Assembly: GCA_046483985.1 (NCBI GenBank)
Contig: JAWOCD010000085.1
Span: forward strand, 14,653-78,652
DNA: 64,000 nucleotides
Direction: 5' to 3'
From: Promethearchaeia archaeon
Lineage (GTDB): Archaea; Asgardarchaeota; Lokiarchaeia; Sigyniarchaeales; SOKP01
The notes below the pieces were generated by a model. The model did no database searches. It had not been told where the DNA came from and saw nothing but the letters and a program-made list of their open reading frames with translations. Below, piece after piece: positions 23,115 to 63,259 of the stretch. Positions within the stretch are counted from its first letter, which is position 1. Every line of letters starts with the position of its first letter. A program made the position numbers and the translations under genes.

Positions 23115-24107
23115 GTGAAAAGGATGAGAGCGGCAGTTTTTGAGGATGTTCGAAAAATTTCCTATGAAGAAGATTATCCCAAGCCAGAAATCACTCCCGA
23201 CCAAGTGTTGGTCAAGGTCGCTTATTGTGCTATCTGTGGCACTGATGTGACTAATTATAAAAAGAAATTATATCAAACTCCAGTGGTGATGGGTCATGAA
23301 TTTTCAGGTACCATTGATAAGATAGGAAAAAATGTGCAAGGATTTCAAGTAGGGGATAAAGTCGTGGGTATTAATGTTTTATTGGAGATTGGGCGTTCAG
23401 ATTCTGGAGGGATGGGCATTTTCAAAGATGGAGGGTTTGCAGAATATGTGGCGGTTCATAAAAACGATTTGTTTCATGTTCCCTCGCCCAATTCGCTAAA
23501 AGAGTGTTCCATGATAGAATCATTTGCTGTCTCCGTCCGGGCATTCAAACGATGTAATATGTCTAAACATCAGAAGATTGTAATTATAGGCGGTGGAAAT
23601 ATAGGGCTAGGGGCACTTAATATTCTAAAGAACCAATATGATCCGGAATATGCAGTGGTGGTTGAAATCTATGAACCTTTAAGAAAAAAAGCGAAAGAAT
23701 TGGGTGCAGATGATACTCTTCCTCCCAGCAAGGCGAAATTAAGGAGATATTTCAGAAAAAACGGAGAACCCGATTATATCCTTGATTGTGCGGGAAACGA
23801 CAAGACATTCGATCTGGCTATTAATACGATAAAAAGGGGGGGAACGATTGTGTTAGAAGGAATCTATAAAGGCAATGTCGAATTCCCTCTATTTTTAATG
23901 AATAATAAGGAAATCACGCTTATTGGCACTTTATCTCATGACCGAGAAGACGTACAAGATACAATTGATCTCTTTACTAGTGGAAATGTTCAACCTGCCA
24001 AATTAATCTCTGATGTTATTCCTTTATCCGAAATACAAGAAGAAGGGTTCGAGCGCTATATGACTGATCAAGAAAGAGATTTTATCAAAATATTAGTGGA
24101 AATCTAA
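23115..24107 (+). CDS. Zinc-dependent medium-chain alcohol dehydrogenase
   Basis: ICGTD, GHEFSG, Rossmann GGGNIG; lacks the structural-Zn four-Cys lobe. Confidence 0.9.
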   Translation: MKRMRAAVFEDVRKISYEEDYPKPEITPDQVLVKVAYCAICGTDVTNYKKKLYQTPVVMGHEFSGTIDKIGKNVQGFQVGDKVVGINVLLEIGRSDSGGMGIFKDGGFAEYVAVHKNDLFHVPSPNSLKECSMIESFAVSVRAFKRCNMSKHQKIVIIGGGNIGLGALNILKNQYDPEYAVVVEIYEPLRKKAKELGADDTLPPSKAKLRRYFRKNGEPDYILDCAGNDKTFDLAINTIKRGGTIVLEGIYKGNVEFPLFLMNNKEITLIGTLSHDREDVQDTIDLFTSGNVQPAKLISDVIPLSEIQEEGFERYMTDQERDFIKILVEI

Positions 24108-24694
24108 ATTTTTTCAGATCTTTCAATTACCTTTTTGCTCATCAATCTAAATGCAGTTTCTACATTATTTCCTGTCTTTGCGGAAGTAATTATTGTTTCC
24201 AAAGCGTTGATTTCCTCACCTAAAGAATCCAATTTCTCTTGGTTTACCTTTCTGGGGAGATCTGCCTTATTTCCAACTAAAATGAGGGGAATTTCATCAT
24301 TACAGTGTTCCATCAAATCGGGAAACCAGAATGTTTCTATCTCTTCAAACGTCTTTTCTCGAGTAAGGTCCCCGATAATTAATGCACCTTGAGCCCCACC
24401 ATAGTAAAGATGTCTAGTTTTCTTCCACCGTTCGTGCCCAGCAATATCCCATAATTGAATATCTACATGGTGATCTTTATCCTTTTCAACGGGGATGTCC
24501 ATATTTCCTAATTCTAATTTTTTCACATACATATTGACCCCGATGCTTGCTCTATAATCATTCAGAAAATGTCCCGAAACGAAACGTTCGGCTAAACTGG
24601 TTTTTCCAACGCCCGGTTCACCAGTTATAACAACCTTAAACACCCAATATCGTTCAGAAATTGTTCTATTTTCACTTTTCAAGATTTCATTCAC
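24104..24694 (-). CDS. Rab-like small GTPase (Ras superfamily)
   Basis: G1 GEPGVGKTS, G2 ASIGV, G3 WDIAGHE, YYGGA, G4 NKAD, G5 TSAK. Confidence 0.93.
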   Translation of the reverse strand: MNEILKSENRTISERYWVFKVVITGEPGVGKTSLAERFVSGHFLNDYRASIGVNMYVKKLELGNMDIPVEKDKDHHVDIQLWDIAGHERWKKTRHLYYGGAQGALIIGDLTREKTFEEIETFWFPDLMEHCNDEIPLILVGNKADLPRKVNQEKLDSLGEEINALETIITSAKTGNNVETAFRLMSKKVIERSEKI

Positions 24695-26156: not shown

Positions 26157-27254
26157 ATGTCGGACGAGAATGAAAAAAAAGAAGATAAAGATGATGATCT
26201 TGATTTAGATTTTGACTTACCGGATTTGGGCTTAGAAGATGAGGAGGAACCATCAATGCCTCCACCGACCGAAGCTCCCCCCTCACCGGCACCGACAGAA
26301 CCATCAGCACCGACAGAACCATCAGCACCGACAGAACCATCAACTATGAAAGCACCAGAACCCACCTCTTCATCCCCTTCCCCTGAATCCACACCCTCGC
26401 CCACACCAACTACCGAATCTATGTCCGCACCACCTTCGCCTACACCCTCAACCGAACCAGAATCAACTGCTCCCTCTCAAAATGAATTGGATAATATGCA
26501 ACAACAAGTAAGCGCGAAGGACCAAAAGATAAATGAACTTCAAAACAAAATAAATGAATTGAACAACCAACTGAGTCAAGCAAGCGGAGAAACATCCAAC
26601 CTTCAATCCCAATTGACCCAAAAGGAGAACCAGATCAACCAACTGAATAATGAATTGCAAAATACAAAAAATTCGATGCAACAGTTACAATCGCAAGTTA
26701 ATCAATTACAATCCGAAAAAGAACAACTCCAAGATCAAATTCCGAACTTGCAACAGCAAATACAACAGCTACAGCAAGAGAAAGCTAATTTGCAAGGTCA
26801 GATCCAACCTCTCCAACAAAAAATACAGCAATTGGAGCAAGATGTTGCGTATAAGGATAAACGTATCAAAGAATTGAAGGAACCAAAGGCAGTTATGGGC
26901 TCGTCTCTCTCTCAAGAACAACCAAGCTCTCCAGGAGCTTCTCAAAGCAGTAGTTCATTTGGAAGCTCCTCTTCCAGCGTAATGGGGGGCGGCGGACAAA
27001 CAGGAACATCTGGCACTACTGGAGGCGGTACGGGAGGCGGTACGGGAGGCGGTACGGGAGGCACTACTGGAGGCGGTACGGAACAGACTCCCTCGGTGGA
27101 CGTAGGAGGCACTCGAACAAAGTGTCCAAATTGTGGAGCAACCGGTCAAGCCATTAAGGAAGTTGAAGATAAAAGTAAAGTCATCAGCTATATCCCCAAA
27201 CCAATTTATGCCAAGAAGTATGTGTGCACTAAGTGTGGATATGAATTCTCATAA
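26157..27254 (+). CDS. Low-complexity / Gln-rich coiled-coil protein with C-terminal zinc ribbon
   Basis: Acidic N-terminus, Pro/Ser/Thr tract, ~135-aa heptad Q/N-rich coil, Gly/Thr linker, CPNCG...CTKCGYEF. Confidence 0.85.
   Translation: MSDENEKKEDKDDDLDLDFDLPDLGLEDEEEPSMPPPTEAPPSPAPTEPSAPTEPSAPTEPSTMKAPEPTSSSPSPESTPSPTPTTESMSAPPSPTPSTEPESTAPSQNELDNMQQQVSAKDQKINELQNKINELNNQLSQASGETSNLQSQLTQKENQINQLNNELQNTKNSMQQLQSQVNQLQSEKEQLQDQIPNLQQQIQQLQQEKANLQGQIQPLQQKIQQLEQDVAYKDKRIKELKEPKAVMGSSLSQEQPSSPGASQSSSSFGSSSSSVMGGGGQTGTSGTTGGGTGGGTGGGTGGTTGGGTEQTPSVDVGGTRTKCPNCGATGQAIKEVEDKSKVISYIPKPIYAKKYVCTKCGYEFS
26289..26342 (+). repeat. 18-bp tandem repeat x3 (APTEPS)
   Basis: gcaccgacagaaccatca three times. 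Confidence 0.95.
27021..27080 (+). repeat. 12-bp tandem repeat x5 (GGGT/GGTT)
   Basis: ggaggcggtacg x3, ggaggcactact, ggaggcggtacg. Confidence 0.92.
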
Positions 27255-49748: not shown

Positions 49749-50369
49749 TTGATATCATCCATGTCGCCTATGAAGTTATCAGAAAAAATGAAATTCTTTA
49801 ACATTGGCCGTTATAAAGAGGAACGGGATACGTTTTATGAATGGAAAAGCAAAAATTTTAATAAATCCATCTCCTTTATCGTGCACTCCACGCGGAGTGC
49901 TCCAGAAAGAGATATCTTTTATACCATAAACAAAAAAGATTATAAAGCCGTTTATTATATTCCAGAAGATATTGATGCGGTATTTACGATAGGTGCGGAC
50001 CCAGATATTCAATCCGTCATTTTAGAAGCACTCTTAGAATATCTCCATAATAAGTTTTTCGAAATGTATGAAGGTTCTCTCCTTACGGCATGTTATGGAG
50101 AAAGATGCGATATTTTTAACGGGTTTACGGATGTGCTCCTTGACTCGTTTAGGAATTTTAGAGAATTAGATTTGGTAAAAGCGACCAGGGTTAATTGCAA
50201 GGCGTGTAAAAAGAACATGCAAGTGTATATAAAAAAATCCTTAATTGAGAATGCCTCACAATTTCCGGTTCCTATCGTCTTTGTTCATTCCGGACACGCG
50301 CTCTTAATATATATAGATAGGCAGTACAAGACTCGAGGAACGGGGCTGGTTTCTCTTTCTTATAAATAA
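49749..50369 (+). CDS. Hypothetical protein: longin-like N-domain plus CxxC/HxxH C-terminal module
   Basis: Beta-beta-alpha-beta-beta-beta-alpha pattern (VFTIGAD...ILEALLEYL); CKAC...FPVPIVFVHSGHALLIYID...TRG. Confidence 0.7.
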   Translation: MISSMSPMKLSEKMKFFNIGRYKEERDTFYEWKSKNFNKSISFIVHSTRSAPERDIFYTINKKDYKAVYYIPEDIDAVFTIGADPDIQSVILEALLEYLHNKFFEMYEGSLLTACYGERCDIFNGFTDVLLDSFRNFRELDLVKATRVNCKACKKNMQVYIKKSLIENASQFPVPIVFVHSGHALLIYIDRQYKTRGTGLVSLSYK

Positions 50370-50478
50370 GATTAATGATCATCAGGATAAATTCTCCATT
50401 TTCTTGTATTTCTCTTATCCATAAAAACTTTAAAAATATCGGTAGTTAATCTTTAATAAAAGTATTTTATCTATAGCT

Positions 50479-51078
50479 ATGGTTAGTTCCTTAATAGAGA
50501 ATTTGAACTCAAAGGTATATTTTTTCCAAGTCACTAAAGGGGGAAACCAACTTTTTACCTGGAAATCTAGATTTATTAAGAAGGCATTTTTTAATACGGG
50601 ATTCTTTAACAAGACTATTACGAATTATGATTTATTCCATCATCTAAATAAAGGAGATATTAAAATGGTCGGGATCAAGTCACGCCCTAATTTAGTTTTT
50701 ACCTTGGGCGCAGAGAGTTCTATTCAATTTCAAATTTTAGAAGCATTATTAGAATACTTGAAGGAGAAGTTCACTAAAAAATATGCAGATATAATTTCTC
50801 TTGAATTTGGGGCGAGTTCAGCGAAGCCCTTCGCTGAATTTGAAGAGGTGATTCTAAACTCACTGGAGGAATTCGAAGAATTAGACCTTATCAAAGTCAT
50901 TGATGTATACGTGGACTTTTTAAGAAAAAGACTAAAAATTGCAGTAAAGCGTTCTCTAATACAAGATGCCGAAGGAAATGTGCCCTTTGTGTTCTATTAT
51001 AAAGGAATTTCTATTCTTCTTTATCTTGATCATGAATACCATGTGAGAGGATTAGAAAAGGTAAGTTTTTCCAATTAG
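50479..51078 (+). CDS. Tandem paralog of the preceding gene lacking the metal ligands
   Basis: Shares VFTLGA..IQ..ILEALLEYL, ELDL, KRSLI and LLYLD..Y.VRG with 49749-50369. Confidence 0.72.
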   Translation: MVSSLIENLNSKVYFFQVTKGGNQLFTWKSRFIKKAFFNTGFFNKTITNYDLFHHLNKGDIKMVGIKSRPNLVFTLGAESSIQFQILEALLEYLKEKFTKKYADIISLEFGASSAKPFAEFEEVILNSLEEFEELDLIKVIDVYVDFLRKRLKIAVKRSLIQDAEGNVPFVFYYKGISILLYLDHEYHVRGLEKVSFSN

Positions 51079-51174
51079 AAAAGACATAACCTAAATGCTT
51101 TTAAATTTGAAAAATTTACTTTAATATGTTTATTTTTCAAATATCATCATCTATAACAAATAAACTACAAAGAT

Positions 51175-52038
51175 ATGACAATTTATAATATTCAAGTCAT
51201 TTCGAGCACGGGTTATCCTTACTTCAACAAAAATATTAAGGAAGAACCTGAAGACATTAAGTTATTTTTGAGATTTTTCGATTTTACGGAAAAAGCAGAA
51301 AGTTTTCCCCCCAGTTTAGATGATGATTCAAATTTTTCGTTATTGGCAGGACTTGTTTCTGCTTTATTTGAATTCGCAAAAAACATTAATAAAAACATCA
51401 ATACCTTGTCATTTAAGTCCTTACATCGTCCAAAGGGAAGACCAAAAATAGAGAAAAAATATCAAGGTGATTGTCTTATTACTACACAAACAGAAACCTA
51501 TCTTCTCCATAAAAGTATACGCCAGAAAATAAATTACATTTACAAAGCAATCGTTTCTTCTAAGATTCCGTTTGAATCTGCTGACCCGCTTACGGAAAAA
51601 GAACAAAAAACCATCGTCGATATATTAACAGATGAAAAAGCGAGAAATCATTTAAAACAAAATACCGGGAAAATAAAAGATATCGCCGAAAAATTATTGC
51701 GTGAACGGGGAGATTATGGATTAGAATCGATTGCGATAACCTCATTTGATCTTACCCCCCTTCGGGTGTATGGAAGTAAGTATTCTTCTGAAGATATTGA
51801 AAATATTTTAAGGAATATTGGTGAAATTCCGCAAATTGATCCGTTCGAGTGGAAATATCGTCAATCCTTTTTGAACAATTCTCAAGTATGGATCTATCTT
51901 ATTAATTCAGGAATCGGAGTGACGGTTGAGGAAACTCTTTTTGAACCATATTTTTATTTGCTCTTCTGTGATCCCCAATCATACTTAGGAGAATTTCCCA
52001 ATAAATTAACACGAGATTTAAATTCAATTCTCGGATAA
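51175..52038 (+). CDS. Longin-like domain protein (possibly two longin/roadblock-type domains)
   Basis: IQVISSTGYPYF...LLAGLVSALFEFAK is typical of the first longin domain of Asgard/Mon1-Fuz-like proteins; second alpha/beta domain ESIAITSFDL...YFYLLF. Confidence 0.7.
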   Translation: MTIYNIQVISSTGYPYFNKNIKEEPEDIKLFLRFFDFTEKAESFPPSLDDDSNFSLLAGLVSALFEFAKNINKNINTLSFKSLHRPKGRPKIEKKYQGDCLITTQTETYLLHKSIRQKINYIYKAIVSSKIPFESADPLTEKEQKTIVDILTDEKARNHLKQNTGKIKDIAEKLLRERGDYGLESIAITSFDLTPLRVYGSKYSSEDIENILRNIGEIPQIDPFEWKYRQSFLNNSQVWIYLINSGIGVTVEETLFEPYFYLLFCDPQSYLGEFPNKLTRDLNSILG

Positions 52039-52092
52039 GCCGATATCAGTTTTTCTCTTTATTAGGAGAGAATGTGCATTATCTTTATTTAA

Positions 52093-52668
52093 TTGGAATG
52101 CTTATTGAGTAATATGACGGAATTTAAAAAGTTAGCAAGTACGAATCATACTGGATTATTGCATCCCAGACAAACGATTTTATGCACCGTGAAACATAAG
52201 AATAAGACAAACATTATCACACTCGCTTGGACAATGATTATCAGTCGAAAACCGCCGATCATTGCCATCTCCGTTGCACCACAGCGATATTCTCATAATT
52301 TAATCAAGAATTCGAAGCAATTCACCATAAATATTCCCACAAAAGAAATAATCTCCGATATATTCTATTGTGGAAGTCACTCTGGAGACCGTGTGGATAA
52401 ATTTAAGGAAACTAATCTCACGGCGCTCGAAGGGCTCTCGGTGGATTGTCCTCGAATAAAAGAGTGTATTGCCCATCTCGAATGTAAGGTCATTGATGCG
52501 AATGAGTACGGTGATCATACCCTTTTCATAGGTAAAGTCATAACATGTACTGGGCGGAGTGATGTCTTAAAAAATGGGAAAACAGACATCTCAAAACTTG
52601 AGATCCCTTACCACCTGACTGGAAAGAGATTTACATTTAATCAAAAGAATATTTTCAGAGTAGAATAA
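52093..52668 (+). CDS. Flavin reductase / flavoredoxin family protein
   Basis: NIITLAW, PPIIAISV, FTINIP, CGSHSG..VDKF, LECKV, GDHTLFIG; start may be ATG 52114. Confidence 0.92.
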   Translation: MECLLSNMTEFKKLASTNHTGLLHPRQTILCTVKHKNKTNIITLAWTMIISRKPPIIAISVAPQRYSHNLIKNSKQFTINIPTKEIISDIFYCGSHSGDRVDKFKETNLTALEGLSVDCPRIKECIAHLECKVIDANEYGDHTLFIGKVITCTGRSDVLKNGKTDISKLEIPYHLTGKRFTFNQKNIFRVE

Positions 52669-52718
52669 CAATCAGTACGAAATTTAAAAAATAAAATAAA
52701 ATAAAATTTTTTAATTAC

Positions 52719-53519
52719 TTATTTGTAAAATTCCGAAGCCTTTTTGACAATTGGAATAAATGTTTCAGCCGAAATTGACGCTGTTCCGATCAGCCCCCCG
52801 TCTATATCTTCCAAGGGAAGTAAATCGCCGCAATTTGCTGGTTTCATAGATCCTCCATATTGGATCTGGATGTTATTTGCCTCTTCCTGACCAAACTCTT
52901 CTTTAAACCAGTTTCGCACGAGGGCGTGTGCTTCTTTCGCCTCATCGGCTGTTGCTGCTTTAATTTCCACTCCAGGATTAAGATATTCATTGTTAATTGC
53001 CCAGACTGGCTCATAGGCAATAATGATATCATTTAATTGCTCTACTGACACACCCGCTAAACATTCTTTAAGTTGAGAGGTATTAATTTCTTCTAATTTT
53101 CCCTCTTGTCGTTCTCTTGCGGATTCGCCGATACAGAGCACCACTTTTAGCCCTTTTTCCAAAGCTTTCAATACTTTTTTATTAATATATTCATTATCCT
53201 CTCCGAATATTCTTCTCCTTTCGCTGTGTCCTAAGATGACATATTCACATCCCGCTTCAAGAAGAGCATCTGGTGAAATCTCTCCCGTGAAAGCACCTTT
53301 GTCCCGAAAGTACATATTTTGGCCGGCCAGTTTTAATTTAGTATCATCTATTGCTTGTCCTACTGGATATAATGCATTAAAGGAAGGACCAATAAAGACA
53401 TCTACCCCAGATAAATCAATATCCTCTAGCTCTGAAGCAATTGCCTTAGCAATTTCTACAGAATCCTTAACCTTGGGAACTTTTAATTTCCAATTACCAC
53501 CAATAGCAAATTTTCTCAT
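52719..53519 (-). CDS. tpiA: Triosephosphate isomerase (long bacterial/eukaryotic type)
   Basis: GGNWK, GAFTGEIS, GHSERR, AYEPVWAI, YGGS. Confidence 0.95.
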   Translation of the reverse strand: MRKFAIGGNWKLKVPKVKDSVEIAKAIASELEDIDLSGVDVFIGPSFNALYPVGQAIDDTKLKLAGQNMYFRDKGAFTGEISPDALLEAGCEYVILGHSERRRIFGEDNEYINKKVLKALEKGLKVVLCIGESARERQEGKLEEINTSQLKECLAGVSVEQLNDIIIAYEPVWAINNEYLNPGVEIKAATADEAKEAHALVRNWFKEEFGQEEANNIQIQYGGSMKPANCGDLLPLEDIDGGLIGTASISAETFIPIVKKASEFYK

Positions 53520-53661
53520 TTCTAAACACTCGATTTAACCTTATTAATCTATATATTAATTCTGGATATTCTAGATAGTATTACTCTATATTTATTATTG
53601 ATATTTAGATTCAAGGAAGTTATAAGAGATAAAAATGAGAGTAACTAAATAAAGAAAAAAA

Positions 53662-54174
53662 TTATTCTTCCTCGTTCTCTTCAGGCAATTTTTCGGTCAA
53701 ATCTGTGGCTTCTAATAACTTCTGAACCTCCTCTAAATCTGGATCCATCACTTCTGGTAAACTAAATTTCTTTCTCCTCCGTTCGATTGCAGATTGTAAA
53801 GGAATGGCCAAACCAGATTCTAAAATCACTGAGGCTTGCTTCGTATAATGCTCCGGAGCTTCTCCCCGTTGGACACTTTCATTTTTAAGTAATGTAAAGA
53901 TATCTGTTAGATTCACTTTTTGTGGGCAGACCTCATCGCAAGTATCGCAAATGGTGCAGCCCCAAATGTTAAATGACTCTTTCCTTCCGAAAATTTTATC
54001 TTTCAACCCTAATAATGAGTCTAAAATTAACCGTCTTGGATTATAGCGCCCTTCCGTGACTTGCGCAACTGGGCACGCCCCGCTGCACGTGGCGCATTGA
54101 TAACAATAGGATAACGTTGATCCAATGTCTGAACCCACGATAGAATTACGGAATTTGAAATCTATAGTTGCCAT
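53662..54174 (-). CDS. hdrC: Heterodisulfide reductase subunit C-like 2x[4Fe-4S] protein
   Basis: CYQCATCSGACP, YNPRR, WGCTICDTCDEVCP. Confidence 0.88.
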   Translation of the reverse strand: MATIDFKFRNSIVGSDIGSTLSYCYQCATCSGACPVAQVTEGRYNPRRLILDSLLGLKDKIFGRKESFNIWGCTICDTCDEVCPQKVNLTDIFTLLKNESVQRGEAPEHYTKQASVILESGLAIPLQSAIERRRKKFSLPEVMDPDLEEVQKLLEATDLTEKLPEENEEE

Positions 54175-54308
54175 TTATTATATCAATTTATAATGTAAAT
54201 TTTAGTATACTTTAATTAAAAATTTATCATATTAAAAATCTATTTTTTTAAAAAACACTTCCTAAGAAGCTAAAATTTATTTAATATTTGCGAAATTTAT
54301 ATATAAGG

Positions 54309-54506
54309 ATGCTGGATGTGGAGATTTCAAAGTTAAAGAAATTCATAAAATCCCGCCAAGATGAATTACAAATCCCCGGAATCGGTTTAGGCATAATTAA
54401 AAATAAAGAAATCGTGTTCAGCGGAGGATTTGGGTTTCGGAATATGAGATTCCATTTGATCCACACCTCTATTTCCTGTAAAATCCTGAATCATATCTCT
54501 ACTTAA
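54309..54506 (+). pseudogene. N-terminal fragment of a serine hydrolase (class C beta-lactamase-like)
   Basis: LQIPGIGLGIIKNKEIVFSGGFGFRN matches the family N-terminus; ORF ends before the SxxK motif. Confidence 0.6.
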
Positions 54507-54841
54507 TATTCATATTATAAAAACTGAAGGAAAAGAACAATTGATTTTATAAATTGAGAAGCATATAATCAATAATTATAGATTTTTTTCTCGTCACTCA
54601 TTCTTTCTAAAATTTCTAATATAAAAACATTCAATGAATTCCCTTTCAATTCTTTAATTTGAGTCAGAAACAACACCACTACTTTAAAGAATTTCTAATC
54701 CTTATTGTTCTGAAGAGCAGTTCATAACTTTTATAATAAAGCTTTAAACAATATAAAGGATTAAATAATTTTAAATATATAAATCAAGAAAATAATTGTG
54801 AGAGATTTAAAGATCTGAAAAAATTATTATCAAGTAATGAG

Positions 54842-55207
54842 TTGAAATCTAAAATGCATATTAGTGAATTAGAAGAAGTAAACGTTGAAGCCCCCCCTGA
54901 GGCTGAAGAAGGAATCTATGTAGTGGATATATATACCAATTGGTGCGGACCTTGTAAATTCGTTAGTCCACTGTTAATGAAACTCCGCGATGAGGGTCTT
55001 ATCTCCTTGACAAAAGTGGATTTAGACCAAAATAGACCGCTTGGAGAAAAGTTTGGAGTAACTGCTATACCAACTCTTCTGTTCTTCAAAAATGGAGAAC
55101 TCATCGATAAAACGATTTCAGTAGACGGAAGGGACTTTATCCAAAATGGAAAAATGGTGGGTGCGGCACCAGAGGACGTATTAAGAAAGATAATTGATAA
55201 AATTTAA
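54842..55207 (+). CDS. trxA: Thioredoxin
   Basis: WCGPC, KVDLD, AIPTLLFFKNG; start may be ATG 54854. Confidence 0.9.
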   Translation: MKSKMHISELEEVNVEAPPEAEEGIYVVDIYTNWCGPCKFVSPLLMKLRDEGLISLTKVDLDQNRPLGEKFGVTAIPTLLFFKNGELIDKTISVDGRDFIQNGKMVGAAPEDVLRKIIDKI

Positions 55208-55349
55208 ACTTTTATACAGTTCAATATTGTTTTTTGTTTCTTTTTCTTTTTAATAGAAAATATTTTCTATTGTATGTTAGATATTAAAAATTTTAAAATG
55301 AATGCTATTTTTACATTTATAATTTAACTACTCTTAGGTTTAAAGGAAA

Positions 55350-55856
55350 ATGTCAAATTACTCGAGAAAGGACTTACTTGACGCTGATGCTACAATGAAT
55401 CAGCTTAGAAATATGGTGACCCACCTTCAGAGATTTATGAAAAAAAGCGGGGTTGAAAATATAATTGAACGCTATAGAAGGATGGGGAAACAGATGGCTG
55501 ACACCTATATTAACTATTGGAAGCCCATTGATAGCGTAAAACTTGCAAACATTCGAGATGTAATCGCTACGATTTATAAAAAAATTGTAGGCAGCCAGAT
55601 TAATATTTCGATCAATGAAAAAGAGCATTTGATCACTGTAGTTGACTCAAATTGCTCTTTATGTAAATACCAATTTGATGATATAAACGTTGCTGGTTGC
55701 GAGATCATCTTGGCTTTAGTCAGCGAGATGATTAACTTAATTAACAAAAATTCTCCCGATTCTTCAAGACTACGTTTAGAACCTTTCGCGGTAAAAGAAT
55801 CACGAACATTTGGAGATGATTCCTGTGTTCAAATATATAAATATAAAATTGAATAA
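55350..55856 (+). CDS. V4R / Bet3(TRAPPC3)-fold protein
   Basis: RRMGKQMA helix, CSLC...GCEII...ESRTFGDDSC pattern of V4R/Bet3-fold proteins. Confidence 0.7.
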   Translation: MSNYSRKDLLDADATMNQLRNMVTHLQRFMKKSGVENIIERYRRMGKQMADTYINYWKPIDSVKLANIRDVIATIYKKIVGSQINISINEKEHLITVVDSNCSLCKYQFDDINVAGCEIILALVSEMINLINKNSPDSSRLRLEPFAVKESRTFGDDSCVQIYKYKIE

Positions 55857-57317
55857 TTGAGATTAGGTGAATATAATTTGGGACTATTTCAATGGTTATT
55901 AAAAAAAGTGACGAAAGCATTTGGGAGAGATACGGACGCATTATTTTATACCTTACTATATAGAGAGATTCTCAAGGAAATTCAAGAAATCACTCAAGAC
56001 GAAGAGAAATCATTAATTGTAATGCGGGAGTTGGGGAAAAATGCGGCTTATGATTCATGTGATAGGCATTCGAGTATTTTTCGGATCATGCCAGGAAAGC
56101 CGGATAAAGTTTTAGACTACTTTGGTATCCTTTGGAGTGTTGTATTTGGGATGGATTTTGCAGAGCATAATTATGAACGCATCCCCAATGACGGACATGT
56201 CTATGATGATTACGTGCTTAATATTCAGAAAAATCCGATTTGTGCGAGCTATAGTAATGATAAAGAAGACACATTTGATTTTAAGAGGGTCCCCGATGAT
56301 CAAGATGGATGTAGTGCGGGTTTATGCGGAATGCTGGAGACCGTTGCTAATTTTATCTTGAAAGTAAAGAAAGCAGAATACCGGATCGGTATGCAAGAAA
56401 CCAAATGCCTGGCAAAAGGCGATGACGTGTTGCAGCTTTATTGTAAAATTTATAATCTTGAGGAATGGAAGCAATACATCGAAAAAGAAGGACAAAAAGA
56501 TATCTTCTCCGAGGATTTTCTTGAGCAAGGCGAACCAGATTTACTTGATAAAGTTCAAGATCTCTTTTCATTGGATAAAATGGAGCAAATTCTGGAAGAG
56601 CCCTTGGAGAATGTCAAAGATAAGGTGGCAGATCTTATCCGAGAGAAGTTAAATATGGGACCTAGGCACTTCTTTGATTATTTCAGAAACTACGAAGATG
56701 ACATGATTCGCATTGTTGGGTTTTTGTTTGTTCATTTACTGAATGAATACGGGGGATTTGTAGAAAAGTTTCTGAAGAACGATGTCCTGGCGCGATTAGC
56801 TGGATATTTATTCAAGCATATGAAGGAAATGACTCTTCTATTTATTCCGTTAGATGTTGTCCACGATTACCATGAATTATTTGTTAGTTTTCTCAAAGGA
56901 TTGGCTCCAGAAGAGATGATTCAAAGAATTGAGAGCTTTTCCGCACAAGAAGATATTAATCTATTATTTGAAGGCGCACAGATCGCCCTCGAAGATTTGG
57001 GAATAGACTTTTCAGAATTGAAAGATAATATTTGGGAAGAATTGAAGGAGGACCGTGAAGATGAATTGATCTCTTCGGATCAATCTGTTATTGATAAATC
57101 CCGTGAAAGATTTCCGAAAATTGTTAATATTCTTCAAGAAATCGTGATGTTGATTAGTGAAATCTTAACGCTTCCCGTGCGAACTCTAATATCTGGAAGC
57201 CATCATTCAGTTAAATCGGCGGTTAATTCTGTAGTATCCGAAGAGGAGGGATTATACGGACAAATTAGAGATCGAGCGGATAATATCTTTGACGAAGTGG
57301 AAGAACTTCAGGATTAA
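55857..57317 (+). CDS. Bet3(TRAPPC3)/V4R-fold domain fused to an acidic all-helical domain
   Basis: FYTLLY...ELGKNAA, DDYVLNIQKNPI, SAGLCGMLE, ETKCLAKGDD; about 280 aa helical C-terminal half. Confidence 0.72.
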   Translation: MRLGEYNLGLFQWLLKKVTKAFGRDTDALFYTLLYREILKEIQEITQDEEKSLIVMRELGKNAAYDSCDRHSSIFRIMPGKPDKVLDYFGILWSVVFGMDFAEHNYERIPNDGHVYDDYVLNIQKNPICASYSNDKEDTFDFKRVPDDQDGCSAGLCGMLETVANFILKVKKAEYRIGMQETKCLAKGDDVLQLYCKIYNLEEWKQYIEKEGQKDIFSEDFLEQGEPDLLDKVQDLFSLDKMEQILEEPLENVKDKVADLIREKLNMGPRHFFDYFRNYEDDMIRIVGFLFVHLLNEYGGFVEKFLKNDVLARLAGYLFKHMKEMTLLFIPLDVVHDYHELFVSFLKGLAPEEMIQRIESFSAQEDINLLFEGAQIALEDLGIDFSELKDNIWEELKEDREDELISSDQSVIDKSRERFPKIVNILQEIVMLISEILTLPVRTLISGSHHSVKSAVNSVVSEEEGLYGQIRDRADNIFDEVEELQD

Positions 57318-57428
57318 GCTAAGAACTGATACTTAACAGGTACAATTAGTTTTTTGAAGTATGATATTTAAATATAAATATCCTTTTTTCTTAACAATTT
57401 CACTCAGCTCAGTTTTGTTTTTTTTATT

Positions 57429-57875
57429 TTACAAAGCTTTTCGCCAGATTACCATCTGCGCATCGTTAACTTTTGCTTTTCTTGGTCCCTTTTTCTCGTA
57501 TTGACATGTTTCAAATACATTCTCATAGTCCTCTCTTACTTGCGCCAAGATTTTCTCTAATTTTAATCCCCGAGCATACCATTCAATAAAATTAAGTATA
57601 CTGGGACCGATTCTCTTAATTTCTGATTCTTTTTTTATGGCCATATATTCAATTCTTCCTTCAGTTTCATTTAGCTTTTTTAATCTTGCAGCACCTTCGA
57701 TTTCTGAATCTATAAGACCCACAAAAAAATATAAATTATTTTTCTCTTCATCTATTATTTTCCGAACAGTATTTTTATCTTTTCCGTATGGCTTAAAGAG
57801 AATTTTCCATTGGAGGTCAAGCATTTCTTCATATTCATGCTCCTTGACTTGTCTAATAATTAGCGAGTTTTCCAT
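57429..57875 (-). CDS. GNAT family acetyltransferase-like protein
   Basis: IEGAARL...GRIEYMAI...KRIGPSIL; degenerate acetyl-CoA motif A. Confidence 0.75.
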   Translation of the reverse strand: MENSLIIRQVKEHEYEEMLDLQWKILFKPYGKDKNTVRKIIDEEKNNLYFFVGLIDSEIEGAARLKKLNETEGRIEYMAIKKESEIKRIGPSILNFIEWYARGLKLEKILAQVREDYENVFETCQYEKKGPRKAKVNDAQMVIWRKAL

Positions 57876-57878
57876 ATG

Positions 57879-58727
57879 TTAAAGTCCTCCTTGTTGCTTT
57901 AATTGCTCGATTTTATTACTGTACTCTGATACTTTTTTATGGTCTTGTAATTCATATGCTAAATCAACCATTGCATAAAAAAGGTTGATTGCCTCTGTGA
58001 TCTCGTCATTCTTAATTAGCTCATTAACCTCTTGTTCTAATCCTTTTAATTTACTCCTTAGTTTGGTTTGCTGTTTTTTTACTTTTTTCTCAATTGTCTG
58101 GAGATCAGCATTGAATTTATTTATCAGGACAGTTTCCACTTCTTGGACCAATTTATAAATTTCTAAGGGATTATCTTTGTCCCATTTTTCATAATGAGGG
58201 ATTTTCCTGAGAAAATTCTCCTTTGATTCATACATTTGAAGTATCTCTTCTGGTAAAATAAATTCGGGTTTTTCTGGATAATTTTGAAAATCAATCTGGA
58301 TTTCAAAATGCTTATCGAGGGTAACCGAAAGGTAGATGGTTGCTTTTGTTATCGAGTCTTTAAATTCGGTCTGAAAGTGGTACATTAACTCTTTTGCCTC
58401 TTCTGCAATTAGAATCTCCTTATCTATCTCAGAGGGAATCTCGATTTTTTTGTCCTCCAATTCTTGAGTTTCTTCAATCTCTTTTTGAGATTTTTTTTTC
58501 TCGATTTGGACGGTTCGTTGCTCTTTATATTCCGTAATCTTTTTTAAAATCGAACGGAGATTGTTTTCAAGTGAGTTCTTCTTTTGTTTGAATTCCGAAA
58601 GAGGAATCTCACCGCTTGAGAGCTTTTGTTTGAGGTTTTGAAGTTTTTTAACTAATTTTTTCGTTTCGGCTTTTAATTTGCCGATTTCCTCACTAATTGA
58701 TTTTTCTTGGCTCATTTTATTCTTCAA
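57879..58727 (-). CDS. Coiled-coil protein with central UBC-fold (UEV/RWD-like) domain
   Basis: IQIDFQNYPEKPEF and IPHYEKWDKDNPLEIYKLVQEV; no Cys in the protein; N-terminal SGEIPLSEF hairpin; C-terminal TPR/MIT-like helices. Confidence 0.65.
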   Translation of the reverse strand: MKNKMSQEKSISEEIGKLKAETKKLVKKLQNLKQKLSSGEIPLSEFKQKKNSLENNLRSILKKITEYKEQRTVQIEKKKSQKEIEETQELEDKKIEIPSEIDKEILIAEEAKELMYHFQTEFKDSITKATIYLSVTLDKHFEIQIDFQNYPEKPEFILPEEILQMYESKENFLRKIPHYEKWDKDNPLEIYKLVQEVETVLINKFNADLQTIEKKVKKQQTKLRSKLKGLEQEVNELIKNDEITEAINLFYAMVDLAYELQDHKKVSEYSNKIEQLKQQGGL

Positions 58728-58798
58728 AATACTAATTATAAAATATATGATTTCCTATTTTATATTAATAATTAATTCTACAAAAAAATTAATCTAGT

Positions 58799-61594
58799 AT
58801 GAAATTAATTAAAAAAGAAAAAATATTGATTAAGAAATTATCAATAGTCGTTCCTATAACAATATTTTTAATCCTCCTTTTCTCTGTTCCTTTAATTAGC
58901 GTGCTTGCACCCTTGGGCAATATTCTTTTTCCCGGAGGTGGAATATGGCGTAGTCCAGGAGAAGTTCCCGAATCGGAAGTGCTCTATATTGACGGAATGG
59001 ACGCCCAAGTGACTGTTTATCGAGATGAATGGGGCATTCCCCATATTTATGCAGAAACTGAGGCTGACTTAGGGTTTACTTTGGGCTATATTCATGCCCA
59101 AGATCGTTTCTTCCAAATGGATTTAGCCCGGCGACAAGTCCGTGGACTCCTCTCCGAAGTGATAGGAGAAAGTGCATTGGAAATGGATAAATACAATTTA
59201 GCAATGGGTATGGAATATTGGGCAAATGAATCGCTTCAAGCAGCAGAACAAATGCAAGAGGATGGGGAGATTGAGTTCTTAGATTCATGGAAAAGATATA
59301 CTAAAGGGATAAATCATTATCTAAATACCCATCAAGGAGAATGGCCAATGGAATATTCGATTTTGGGCTTCAAACCTACGGATAGACCTTGGACGCTATT
59401 AGATTCAATGTGTTACTCCAAATATATGAGTAAAATGTTAACGTGGGAGTACAGTGACCTTTACCGCTACGCTAATAGGAAAGCATTGGGAAATGACTCC
59501 TATGATGAATTATACGGACCAAATTTACCATATCAAATACCAGTCGTTCCTGGGTATGGCGATTATAATAATTCCGAACTTCTCTCTAATGATCTTGGGG
59601 CTAATCCGCAACCCAGCGATACGGTAGTCGACACCATCTCAACTTTTCTCAAGAATGCAGAAGAAATTGAATCTGAAAAAGCGTTGATGGACCTACAGAA
59701 TAATGGAGCCATAGGATCCAATAATTGGGTAGTAGACGGGAATAAAAGCAGTACTGGGAAGCCCATCCTATGTAATGATATGCATCTTGCCCATAATATG
59801 CCTGGAATATGGTATGAAACTCATTTAGTTTCTGAGGATACAGGGCTCAATACGTATGGATTTACACTAGCCGGTGTCCCCCTCCCGATCGTAGCCCATA
59901 ATGAACATGTGGCTTGGGGCTTGACCAATACCAATTTTGATGTCCTCGATTGGTATTACTATGAAGAAACTGACGATAATCATTATATCTATAATGAAAG
60001 TAAAACGGAATATGAAATGAAAACGTATAACATTCCCGTCAAGGGAGGAAAAAATATCGAATTTGAGGTCAAAAATACAGTGCACGGCCCAGTCCTTAAT
60101 GATTTTCTTGATAACCAATACACAGAAACCTTTGATAATAATATTGTATTAGCTCCTCGATGGACAGCTAATAATGTTACTAATGAATTATTGGCCGTTT
60201 ACGAATTCAATCATGCTAAAACTAGAGCGGATTTCAATGAATCTTCAAGATATTTTCATAATCCGGCTCAGAATTTTGTCTATGCGGATATCGATGGAAA
60301 TATTGCCATGCGTCCCACCGGATTAGTACCATTCAGAGAAGGAAACGGGACATTTCCGTATAATGGTTCTAGTGGAGAAGGCGAATGGACAGGTTATACA
60401 GAATTAGAGGATCTTCCAGAAGCGGTCAATCCAGACCAAAATTATTTAGCCTCCGCTAACCAAATTTCCGTGGGACCGAATTTTACTAAAGAAAACGGAT
60501 ATCTTTTACAGAATAATTATCGGCCTGGCTATAGAGCAAGACGTATCAACGAATTACTCAATAATTCTGCCGATGGAACGGTAGGTGTTGAGAAAATGAA
60601 AGAAATCCAATTAGATCAAAAATCAAGTGTAGCGCAATCCTTCACGGAATACCTCATTGATGCCATAGAAGATCTGGGAGAGTCCGATAGAACCCCTCTT
60701 ATGGACGATGCACTGACCTATTTAAAGAATTGGGATTACGATATGGACAAGGATTTACCAACACCCGCAATTTTTCGCAAATGGAGGGATTTATTCATGG
60801 ATCATACTTTTACCGATGAATTTGAAGAAAAAGGGGCTCTTGGATCTCCAGAATTAACCGTGCTGGAATATTATATGAAGGAACACCCAGATTCTCATTG
60901 GTTTAATGACATTACTACTGATTCAAAAACGGAAACCAGAGACGATATAATAATCAAGGCATTTGAAGATACGTTGGACTTTCTTAAGGATTTCTATGAC
61001 ACGGATGATATTTCTCAATGGAGATGGGGGGAACTTCACAAAGTTAAATTTCCCCACCTAATTGGACAAGATTCCTTAAGTAAAGGTCCCTATGAAGTTG
61101 GGGGTTCTGGATATACCGTAAATCCCGCATGGAGTGATATAAGCGAAGGAGTAGGAATTGCGACGAGCGGTGCTTCAGAACGGATGATTGTCGATTTCAG
61201 CGATTTAGAAAAATCGTGGAGTTGTATTCCGAGCGGACAAAGAGGAATCACCAATTCAAAACATTATTCTGATCAACTGGAGGAATTGTTCCTTGAAGGA
61301 AAATACCATCAACAGTATTTCTATGATAACTCTGAAGATTTTCCGAAACAACACGTGGAAACTTATCTTATTATCCGTCCCAGCTCTGAGTTTAATCTCT
61401 TTTTAGTACTTACCCCAACTTTTATCATTGTTGGATTTATTGCGGGTTTGATAGGCTTGTATAAAGTTTTCACATTGAAAACGAAGGAAACACCTCGTTC
61501 TCGTTCTGAAAAAGGATTTGAATCCCGAGCGACTACGGATATTCCCAAAGACAAAGATTCTGCGAATAAAAGCCCACAAAAGGAGGGAAACTAA
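58799..61594 (+). CDS. Penicillin acylase family (S45 Ntn-hydrolase), membrane anchored
   Basis: RDEWGIPHIYA, AQDRFFQMD, GSNNW nucleophile, NDMHL, PAQNFVYAD, SGQ...HYSDQ; N- and C-terminal TM segments. Confidence 0.95.
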   Translation: MKLIKKEKILIKKLSIVVPITIFLILLFSVPLISVLAPLGNILFPGGGIWRSPGEVPESEVLYIDGMDAQVTVYRDEWGIPHIYAETEADLGFTLGYIHAQDRFFQMDLARRQVRGLLSEVIGESALEMDKYNLAMGMEYWANESLQAAEQMQEDGEIEFLDSWKRYTKGINHYLNTHQGEWPMEYSILGFKPTDRPWTLLDSMCYSKYMSKMLTWEYSDLYRYANRKALGNDSYDELYGPNLPYQIPVVPGYGDYNNSELLSNDLGANPQPSDTVVDTISTFLKNAEEIESEKALMDLQNNGAIGSNNWVVDGNKSSTGKPILCNDMHLAHNMPGIWYETHLVSEDTGLNTYGFTLAGVPLPIVAHNEHVAWGLTNTNFDVLDWYYYEETDDNHYIYNESKTEYEMKTYNIPVKGGKNIEFEVKNTVHGPVLNDFLDNQYTETFDNNIVLAPRWTANNVTNELLAVYEFNHAKTRADFNESSRYFHNPAQNFVYADIDGNIAMRPTGLVPFREGNGTFPYNGSSGEGEWTGYTELEDLPEAVNPDQNYLASANQISVGPNFTKENGYLLQNNYRPGYRARRINELLNNSADGTVGVEKMKEIQLDQKSSVAQSFTEYLIDAIEDLGESDRTPLMDDALTYLKNWDYDMDKDLPTPAIFRKWRDLFMDHTFTDEFEEKGALGSPELTVLEYYMKEHPDSHWFNDITTDSKTETRDDIIIKAFEDTLDFLKDFYDTDDISQWRWGELHKVKFPHLIGQDSLSKGPYEVGGSGYTVNPAWSDISEGVGIATSGASERMIVDFSDLEKSWSCIPSGQRGITNSKHYSDQLEELFLEGKYHQQYFYDNSEDFPKQHVETYLIIRPSSEFNLFLVLTPTFIIVGFIAGLIGLYKVFTLKTKETPRSRSEKGFESRATTDIPKDKDSANKSPQKEGN

Positions 61595-61595
61595 A

Positions 61596-62018
61596 ATGGA
61601 AAAATCCTTTATGAAATCACAAAAGAAAAGGAGAAATTTTGTGCTCAGTGTGGTACTTGCTACTGGCGTTACTATTTTCCTTCTTTTTATTCCCGTTTGG
61701 CAATTGATTCTTATTCCGGGAATCCTTGCTGGGCTCATTAACAAAGAGATTAAAAGATCCGTTTATAGTGCAATCATTAGCGTGTCCGTCGTCTGGAGTA
61801 TCTTTATGGTTATTAATTTTTATACCAAAAATGCTTACAAACTCTTGGATCAATTTGCGGGATTTATATTCGGCGGATTGGGATTTGGTTATGTCATCTT
61901 TATCATTATTTTACTGATGGGAATTATATTTGGCGCTCTGGGAGCTATCATAGGAGGTTACCTGATCCAATTTTATGAGGTCCACCGCACTGGGAAATCC
62001 GAGACAAGGAATGATTAA
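61596..62018 (+). CDS. Small hypothetical membrane protein (about 4 TM)
   Basis: ATG 1 bp after the acylase stop; hydrophobic, Gly-rich helices. Confidence 0.8.
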   Translation: MEKSFMKSQKKRRNFVLSVVLATGVTIFLLFIPVWQLILIPGILAGLINKEIKRSVYSAIISVSVVWSIFMVINFYTKNAYKLLDQFAGFIFGGLGFGYVIFIIILLMGIIFGALGAIIGGYLIQFYEVHRTGKSETRND

Positions 62019-62218
62019 TTACAATAAAAATTTTTACCTCTTTCACCTTTTTTTTTATTTTTAGTTGTTAAAAAAAATTAGAGATCTTACCCTACCTAAA
62101 ATAACCCCTTTAAAACATTATAACTATTAATAGTATTAGAAATTAATATTAATATATCGGTAATTGTATATTTAATATAGAATAGAAGTAAGAGATAACC
62201 TACATTTTTGGGATTTTT

Positions 62219-63259
62219 ATGAAAGCATTGCTAATTTTAGCATGGAGAGATGATGTTGGAGCCTATGTTTTACATAGTTATCCAGAGCGATTTGCTGATG
62301 AGGTCGATGGGCAAGATCTCATGAATATATATAATTCTCACCGTTTCAGAACTACTGACAAGAATTTTAAGATTCTAAAACGGGGAGATTTTAACGCGGC
62401 CTCGTTTTACTCGGGAGGATATCAATCTTCCTATATTGCCAAGCCAAATTACTGTGTTACTTTAGTTTTGGAGGAAAAGGATAATCCAAATGCCTATGAA
62501 AAGGTACTAATTAAAGTCACCAATAATCTGCTTTCAAAATTGGATGCAGATGATTTTGATTATATCCTTGAAGATACCTTCTATAAATTAAAGGAAAGAC
62601 GATTTGATGAAATCGAAGTAATGAGAGGAGGTTTTGAATTTGAGGATGAAGAACCAACTCCAACCAAAAAATTGGCCACCACCTCTTCGGCGAGTTTATC
62701 AGATGAAGAGCAAATTTTTGAGAACCTTATGAGCAGTTCCGAATTTATGCCAGAAGAAGAAAAGGAATCGAAGTTGGCAGATTTTGAGGATTCTGCTCAT
62801 TCTGAACCGTTTTCAACCGAAGAGCCCTCAAACGACCCATTTGGAGGAGGCGGAGGAGGAAAAGCAGAATCACGTGATATTTATGCGGAGAATCCTTTTG
62901 CTCAAGGAGGAGGCTCTACTTCAGCAGACCCATTTTCAGAGGAACAAAAACCCTCAATTGGCTCATCTTTATCTGGGGCAGATGAAACGGTGGGCAAAAA
63001 GATGTTCAAAGAGCGAAAAACTTCTGCAAATAAGATTATTGCTCAATTGGATTCATTAGAGGAAGAAAGACCAGAAAAGCCGAGTGAAACGGATAAAGAA
63101 GCTCAATTTAAATATTTAGAACATTTAGTTAGCTTTTTACAAGAAAAAGTTAACATTCTCGGCAAATTAGTTAATGGTGTAAAAGATTTAGAAAAAAATA
63201 TCGAGGAAAAGGATAAACTCATCGGGAAATTACTATTACTTTTAGAAGAAAAGAAATAA
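62219..63259 (+). CDS. Longin/uDENN-like N-domain, disordered acidic linker with DPF/NPF motifs, C-terminal coiled coil
   Basis: LLILAWRDDVGAYVLHSYP...ASFYSG...CVTLVLEEKDNP; EPF, DPF, NPF, DPF; heptad C-terminus. Confidence 0.7.
   Translation: MKALLILAWRDDVGAYVLHSYPERFADEVDGQDLMNIYNSHRFRTTDKNFKILKRGDFNAASFYSGGYQSSYIAKPNYCVTLVLEEKDNPNAYEKVLIKVTNNLLSKLDADDFDYILEDTFYKLKERRFDEIEVMRGGFEFEDEEPTPTKKLATTSSASLSDEEQIFENLMSSSEFMPEEEKESKLADFEDSAHSEPFSTEEPSNDPFGGGGGGKAESRDIYAENPFAQGGGSTSADPFSEEQKPSIGSSLSGADETVGKKMFKERKTSANKIIAQLDSLEEERPEKPSETDKEAQFKYLEHLVSFLQEKVNILGKLVNGVKDLEKNIEEKDKLIGKLLLLLEEKK

Follow-up and report, generated by a model that had tools for sequence, protein, structure and literature searches.

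The core of the eukaryotic TRAPP complex contains Bet3-Trs33 and Bet3-Trs31 heterodimers that flank a Bet5-Trs23 longin pair, as described in the accessible text of two papers (PMC10152722, PMC10933270). Heterodimers of Bet3-fold paralogues have so far been a hallmark of this eukaryotic complex, and the present analysis bears on how its several Bet3-fold subunits arose from one V4R-like ancestor. Published TRAPPC3-like proteins of Asgard archaea have been treated as homodimers. According to the accessible text of Tran et al. 2024 (PMC10933270), Thor-TRAPPC3 forms a homodimer in its crystal structures (PDB 7YH2 and 7YH3), with ligand binding suggested as its role, and WP_147663132.1 of Promethearchaeum syntrophicum MK-D1, named 'MKD1-TRAPPC3', was modeled with AlphaFold2 (AF2) as a homodimer. 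The same text describes prokaryotic V4R domains as ligand-binding regulators. In this study, we analyzed V1 and V2, two adjoining genes of this fold, together with the genes around them in a 64,000-nucleotide stretch of a Lokiarchaeia genome (GenBank contig JAWOCD010000085.1, positions 14,653 to 78,652), here called the window.

The genome containing the window is 4.06 Mb in size and 97% complete, and the window lies on its contig C29; proteins encoded there match records of Promethearchaeota/Lokiarchaeia. An earlier reading of the DNA, made from the letters alone and referred to here as the sequence-only reading, had pointed to positions 49749-63259 as a possible TRAPP-like neighborhood of longin-like genes (A, B, C and D), V1, V2 and a UEV-like gene, with a Rab-like GTPase gene upstream. 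All of its open reading frames were found where it had placed them; its observation was partly confirmed and its interpretation partly supported. The conserved unit is the V1-V2 pair and not the 13.5-kb neighborhood, which is not a proto-TRAPP operon.

V1 and V2 in the window and in related genomes

None of the proteins A, B, C, V1, V2 and D had a significant match in a Pfam scan of the window proteins, and their folds were therefore checked by alignments and models. The family profile of V1, searched against the PDB, matched the Thorarchaeota TRAPPC3 structures 7YH2/7YH3 at E 1.5e-10 and eukaryotic TRAPPC3/C6B weakly (E 0.2-0.7). A PDB profile search with V2 gave no significant match, and the N-terminal domain of V2 (about 195 residues) is homologous to V1 in hhalign (E 1.6e-4, probability 51%). 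The two adjoining Bet3/V4R-fold genes of the sequence-only reading were confirmed by the Thorarchaeota match and this homology, and V1 and V2 are ancient paralogues of the Bet3/TRAPPC3/V4R fold. Some family members match Pfam V4R or TRAPP weakly. Searches of the genome with Pfam TRAPP, Sybindin, Sedlin_N and NPR2 returned nothing; the controls also fell below the cut-off, so this result is no evidence of absence.

The zinc-type site of V1 consists of C102, C105, C117 and C159, of which the last three are invariant and the first nearly so in the family alignment. The site is degenerate in V2, whose cysteines are not conserved across the class. Translation of V2 probably starts at the TTG codon at 55878, which lies behind a GGTGA motif and is in line with the orthologues; the longest reading frame begins at 55857. 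Residues 2-17 of V2 have a net charge of +4 and a hydrophobic moment of about 0.5 in the family of the window genome. In a quick tree search, run without eukaryotic sequences and leaving deep branches unresolved, the V1 and V2 orthologues each formed a supported group (Shimodaira-Hasegawa-like approximate likelihood ratio test, SH-aLRT, 99 and 95).

In 58 of 58 loci, which comprise 50 orthologous and 8 paralogous pairs and cover all seven families of the class, V2 is the next gene after V1 and shares its strand, with intergenic gaps mostly of -8 to +16 nucleotides. The pair is essentially single copy in families f1-f4 and was duplicated as a pair at least eight times in families f5-f7. The two genes are probably co-translated. 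One RNA run over the MK-D1 locus yielded a single 61-kb contig that spans the whole stretch and is hence uninformative on co-transcription. In MK-D1, WP_147663132.1 is the V1 orthologue and the next gene, WP_147663133.1, is the V2 orthologue. The accessible text of Tran et al. 2024 (PMC10933270) makes no mention of second V4R-fold partner genes, and no paper on the V1-V2 pair was found in literature searches whose coverage left out most subscription journals.

Tandem pairs of V4R-fold genes (V-V) are also present in four other families of the phylum, namely f13, f14, f21 and the Thor family. The orthologue of Thor-TRAPPC3 (E 2e-92 to 7YH2) is followed by a V4R-fold gene of 182-192 amino acids (aa) and preceded by a roadblock-headed gene in all 4 Thor genomes showing the locus. 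The 184-aa Thor partner fell inside the V2 group of the quick tree at support 85 on a long branch, and its orthology to V2 is therefore not claimed; nor is a common origin of the tandem pairs established, because the deep branches are unresolved and the tree has no eukaryotic rows. Family f21 contains a V-V-longin three-gene run (L170:3317-5045 and L171:3435-5167), the closest arrangement to a proto-TRAPP operon seen in this analysis. Thorarchaeia loci L164-L167 (e.g. L165:2974-7961) show two roadblock-headed, probably winged helix-turn-helix-tailed genes, each followed by a TRAPPC3-like gene, flanking two small membrane genes.

The predicted V1-V2 dimer and its candidate partners

Complex prediction for V1 and residues 1-200 of V2 gave a score of 0.95 in three runs, which may reflect likeness instead of binding, since like dimers have been solved (7YH2, TRAPPC3/C6); the best of 3 controls scored 0.00. 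The runs shared at least 95% of contacts, and the partner predicted local distance difference test (pLDDT) value was at least 91. Of the 80 solved complexes, 58 reached the mark used for the complex score, as did 2 of the 110 mismatched pairs. The predicted interface has about 170 contacts at low expected error and is formed mainly by the N-terminal helices (V2 15-60 and V1 2-57), with the basic amphipathic N-terminal residues of V2 outside. V1 and V2 quite probably form a 1:1 heterodimer through these helices, as Bet3 does with Trs33 or Trs31. The two genes might instead be co-transcribed for co-regulation and act as two separate homodimers, which would agree with the Thor-TRAPPC3 homodimer crystals and the AF2 homodimer of MK-D1 V1 (accessible text of PMC10933270) and with a heterodimer score that may stem from likeness to solved dimers. 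Against this stand the adjacency at every locus, the repeated duplication of the genes as a pair and the large predicted interface, and we regard separate homodimers as highly unlikely.

The explanation that we prefer for the locus as a whole, at a probability of roughly 0.6, is that its functional unit is the V1-V2 pair serving as a membrane-proximal ligand-binding scaffold, which would be the most likely job of the dimer. V1 and V2, back to back on one strand, would be made together and paired one to one. By analogy with Thor-TRAPPC3, from which both the metal and the ligand are taken, the zinc-type site of V1, which V2 has partly lost, would tie the fold around a hydrophobic cavity. More tentatively, the basic amphipathic first helix of V2 may attach the dimer to the membrane, with domain X of V2 and, in some lineages, D as possible partners there. 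The ordinary inertia of gene order, in a genome where such genes abound, would account for the presence of A, B, C, UEV and Rab nearby.

Several points weigh against this explanation. Homodimers were not among the controls of the complex prediction, whose score possibly comes from likeness to solved Bet3-fold dimers. In the accessible text of Tran et al. (PMC10933270), the Thor-TRAPPC3 crystal and the predicted MK-D1 V1 are homodimers, and Asgard proteins expressed in HeLa cells showed no membrane targeting. Over the same residues 2-17, the amphipathic moment of V2 is low (0.14-0.25) in several family-f2 sequences. The related genomes that enter the V1-V2 locus counts are not independent. Finally, the local longin density is modestly above background, and pure chance is not a full explanation of the neighborhood.

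Domain X had no Pfam or PDB match in profile searches; a PDB match at E 0.03 was too weak to support a BART identity, which was dropped. X was not found in other classes among 251 genomes searched, and its relatives number just 53 in 1.8 billion representatives. The V2 of families f5-f7 has a length of only about 190 aa, and the missing tail X makes up the C-terminal half of DxD-motif hydrolases of the HAD family (HAD part, Pfam HAD_2 E 4e-33). These HAD-X proteins, of two paralogous types, are present in the checked f5-f7 genomes, and in two genomes the gene lies 0.3-0.8 kb upstream of V1. The Rosetta-stone pattern, with X in V2 or in HAD-X, suggests that X is a third partner of V1-V2.

The same pattern adds to the case for V1-V2 as a V4R-type small-molecule sensor or regulator for metabolism or phosphatase signaling, with no role in traffic and with its ligand controlling X, a role compatible with the heterodimer. 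This is further favored by the ligand-binding regulatory function of prokaryotic V4R domains (accessible text of PMC10933270), by the four-Cys site of V1, which eukaryotic Bet3 lacks, and by the metabolic character of the persistent neighbors tpiA, hdrC and thioredoxin. However, V1-V2 has no attached DNA-binding or kinase domain, the nearest solved relatives of V1 are Thor-TRAPPC3 and, weakly, TRAPPC3/C6B, with no PoxR-type V4R among its PDB profile matches, and D, with its adaptor-like motifs, is linked at all loci where it was found. We consider the sensor role rather unlikely.

The linker of D contains the motifs DPF206, NPF225 and DPF237, three against 0.08 expected, which are kept in orthologues; this part of the earlier description of D as a longin-like protein with DPF/NPF motifs held, and the longin fold stayed unconfirmed. 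The N-terminal domain of D aligned with the genome longin profile at hhalign E 0.004 and one paralogue matched Afi1 at E 0.025, and profile searches with D gave no PDB or Pfam match. At 11 of 11 loci with a full-length D orthologue (five genomes and six further contigs), D and V1-V2 are 29 bp to 6.2 kb apart, in several different orders and with D twice directly downstream on the same strand; full-length D was not found in 56 of 61 genomes searched. A single family-level arrangement accounts for five of the eleven loci, and tpiA likewise stays close to V1-V2; the linkage of D is therefore a lead and not proof. D is a candidate accessory partner of V1-V2 and, beyond the pair, the sole item on the list of the sequence-only reading with cross-family support. 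Arf-like GTPase genes (229 aa; L193:1640-3293 and L196:5129-5818) were seen 2-9 kb from V1-V2-D in two related genomes.

Longin, UEV-like and GTPase genes of the neighborhood

The genes of 49749-63259 are, in order, A (206 aa), B (199 aa), C (287 aa), a flavin reductase, tpiA (minus strand), an HdrC-like 4Fe-4S protein (minus), thioredoxin, V1 (168 aa), V2 (479-486 aa), GNAT (minus), the UEV-like protein (minus), penicillin amidase, a membrane protein and D (346 aa). The identity of tpiA was taken from its own sequence and from TIM matches at related loci. Since oppositely oriented metabolic genes intervene, the candidates are split into three separate blocks. The features are listed in Table 1.

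Table 1. Coordinates of the features considered in and beyond the window
Feature	Position	Strand	Description
V1	55350..55856	+	168-aa single-domain protein of the Bet3/TRAPPC3/V4R fold with four-Cys zinc-type site; core of the finding
V2	55878..57317	+	479 aa; basic amphipathic N-terminal helix, Bet3/V4R-fold domain (~15-195) and ~275-aa helical domain X; core of the finding
Domain X of V2	56490..57314	+	Predicted to be helical from its sequence pattern
D	62219..63259	+	346 aa; possible uDENN-type longin at the N-terminus (unconfirmed), then acidic linker and C-terminal coiled coil
A	49749..50369	+	Longin (VAMP7/Sec22-like shape) and small CxxC/His beta domain; not counted in the unit
B	50479..51078	+	Tandem paralogue of A (34% identical) without CxxC
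C	51175..52038	+	Two domains, longin (2-154) and roadblock (156-287); not counted in the unit
UEV-like protein	57879..58727	-	Coiled coil, RWD/UEV-like domain and helical tail; bystander
Rab-like small GTPase	24104..24694	-	Ras family E 1e-38; 25.05 kb upstream; bystander
HAD-X fusions	L075:8157-9737, L076:1-1221, L176:4455-5927		HAD-family hydrolase with domain X, families f5-f7
Other V4R runs of the window genome (G000)	C6:3185-5571, C51:31642-34177, C66:93412-95191, C126:64903-68899		E.g. roadblock-V4R-roadblock-GTPase

The call of three longin-like genes was borne out for A, B and C; only the further one, for D, was not. The AF2 model of A (pLDDT 92) has a longin fold over residues ~10-140 that matches the VAMP7 longin (Z 14.2, root-mean-square deviation 3.4, 123 aligned) and Sec22 (Z 13.6), and the TRAPP longins scored lower (range Z 9.4-10.7; synbindin 10.7, sedlin 10.3, Bet5 9.8). 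In a feature search of the Atlas, all matches of A were unnamed Promethearchaeota clusters. The CxxC/His beta domain of A (50180-50369, the C-terminal ~60 aa) is a mobile module in many Lokiarchaeia proteins and is also found N-terminally on a small GTPase of the window genome (C6:4693-5571). B was not seen at this locus in the relatives inspected. For the longin domain of C, synbindin (Z 9.7), Bet5 (9.5) and SRX (8.5-9.1) were tied, and its roadblock domain matched the Loki Rag C-terminal domain (Z 11.7) and Mon1 (10.6). The best Foldseek matches of C were Mon1-Ccz1 and Fuzzy-Inturned (E 2e-5 to 6e-4; whole-chain template modeling score, TM, about 0.27), and a PDB profile search with C gave no significant match; its Atlas relatives are unnamed Promethearchaeota clusters. 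C is possibly a two-domain relative of Mon1/Fuzzy-type subunits, and judged by these models the window longins do not appear to resemble those of TRAPP in particular.

With iterated profiles, the count for the genome was at least 56 longin-like and 35 roadblock genes; the Ras family had 72 matches (about 67 small-GTPase genes). The sequence-only reading had itself cautioned that metabolic genes are interspersed and such domains numerous. No 13.5-kb stretch of the genome other than positions 49749-63259 contains four longin-like genes, and label permutation produced a cluster of this kind somewhere in the genome with P 0.023. When the A/B duplicate was counted once, three longin genes remained (P 0.38), and the genome has two other three-gene clusters. 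Conditional on the V pair, the local P was 0.001 for at least three longins and 0.016 for at least two, although the longin labels had been seeded from these window genes and the borders chosen afterwards. The earlier reading had named a local density equal to the genome background as a result that would speak against it; the density found is somewhat higher, and this objection therefore falls away.

Synteny was compared in 19 V1-centered loci of the same family and in 18 loci of other families of the order, with genes within about 10 kb taken as nearby. Within the family, C was nearby in 13 of the 19 loci, tpiA in the same 13, leuS in 13, hdrC in 17 and A in 3; in the other families A and C were nearby in 0/18 and tpiA in 7/18. 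Proximity of A and C to V1-V2 is thus limited to the family, where tpiA and leuS are likewise kept. Searches of three complete genomes with V1-V2 found no C, and in a fourth the partial match to C is 435 kb away from V1. Outside the family, 445 kb of loci contained 9 longin-like genes against 6.1 expected (P 0.17). Side by side with these counts, the window tpiA (52719-53519) is nearer to that of family f2 (E 1e-103 to 1e-118) than to the same-locus tpiA of its own family (about 1e-62), which suggests that tpiA may have been replaced in place in one lineage. A stand-alone roadblock gene of ~123 aa lies convergently downstream of V2 in 17 of the 19 same-family loci (L082-L100, 0.1-3 genes off), and none is present in the window.

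The middle domain of the UEV-like protein resembles RWD/E2 folds in Atlas models (TM 0.3-0.6), which makes that description plausible; no UEV homologue stands beside V1-V2 in the loci of relatives, and the gene was rejected as a member of the unit as unlinked. The Rab-like gene is where the sequence-only reading had put it, about 25 kb upstream. A small GTPase gene lies within 25 kb of 56% of random positions (38% when strong Rab-like matches are counted), and the distance is therefore uninformative; in five well-assembled genomes, V1 and the best Rab match are 29-357 kb apart. The Rab gene was accordingly rejected for its chance-level distance and lack of linkage in relatives. According to the accessible text of PMC10933270, GTPase genes of MK-D1 are generally outside operons with longin or TRAPPC3 genes. 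Near the Rab gene, at 1.5 kb, the window encodes a protein (26157-27254) whose acidic N-terminus is rich in Pro, Ser and Thr and which also has a long Gln-rich coiled coil.

The linkage of A, C, UEV and Rab to the pair decays like that of tpiA or faster, and their family-limited synteny therefore marks the neighborhood as family-level gene order and not as a conserved module. Longin and Bet3-fold genes are indeed encoded close together here, as had been proposed, and they are not kept as a cluster: longin, Bet3-like and GTPase genes do not stay together beyond ordinary synteny, with D as the exception.

These data bear directly on the model of the sequence-only reading, in which A, B, C, D and V1-V2 would form a TRAPP-like core exchanging nucleotide on the upstream Rab. 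The longin folds of A and C are confirmed, the cluster is the densest in longins of the genome, D stands beside the pair wherever found, a V-V-longin run exists in another Asgard family (L170, L171), and a longin-TRAPPC3 fusion is described for Heimdall in the accessible text of Tran et al. (PMC10933270). The model is nevertheless very improbable, because A and C are unlinked outside the family, C was not found in three complete genomes with V1-V2, the model of A is closer to SNARE longins than to those of TRAPP, the Rab shows a chance-level distance and no linkage in relatives, and oppositely oriented tpiA and hdrC separate the genes. Moreover, four of the five other V4R-like genes of the genome adjoin GTPase or roadblock genes and V1-V2 does not. 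Those four have roadblock, longin-roadblock or small-GTPase genes as members of the same run, at distances of 0-470 bp, and look like better candidates for V4R-GTPase signaling modules than V1-V2. The V1-V2 scaffold remains the preferred explanation, to which the wider neighborhood adds little beyond the candidate D.

Comparison with known systems

If V1 and V2 do form a heterodimer, archaea took a step toward asymmetry based on paralogues, and the native partner may be missing from the published homodimer structures and models; the pairing is testable with the two MK-D1 proteins of a cultured strain. It would be a larger claim, which we regard as quite unlikely, that Bet3-fold paralogue heterodimers already existed in Asgard archaea as a phylum-wide pair and, in Lokiarchaeia, as a membrane-docked scaffold with two roles, recruiting D in trans as a longin-like adaptor and regulating a small GTPase. 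The dimer would in that case be a forerunner of the TRAPP core in function.

The gene C resembles the tri-longin-domain Rab guanine nucleotide exchange factors (Mon1-Ccz1, Fuzzy-Inturned and BLOC-3) in having a longin followed by a roadblock-type domain; it differs in having two domains in 287 aa and not three, and Rag C-terminal roadblocks match its second domain equally well. With the prokaryotic V4R domains of the PoxR/DmpR type (Podar et al. 2008, PMC2253512), V1-V2 shares the superfamily fold and the cysteine pattern, whereas it is a stand-alone paralogue pair without ATPase or HTH output domain.

Compared with the eukaryotic TRAPP core, V1 and V2 are likewise two Bet3-fold paralogues predicted to pair through their N-terminal helices, in a genome where longin genes are abundant. 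Unlike that core, V1-V2 has no co-encoded conserved longin pair, V1 has the four-Cys site that eukaryotic Bet3 is without (accessible text of PMC10933270), and V2 has a lineage-specific extra domain. On the predicted model, V1-V2 likely works like a Bet3-type paralogue heterodimer; membership in a TRAPP complex is a possibility, and no Rab exchange activity is claimed. The closest comparison is with MKD1-TRAPPC3 and Thor-TRAPPC3, of whose fold family and Cys zinc-type site V1 partakes. The modeled V1-V2 interface is likewise formed by N-terminal helices, as is the dimer interface described for Thor-TRAPPC3 and TRAPPC3/C6 in the accessible text of PMC10933270. The difference lies in the partner: homodimers are described there, and here V1 always precedes a paralogue that has an extra domain.

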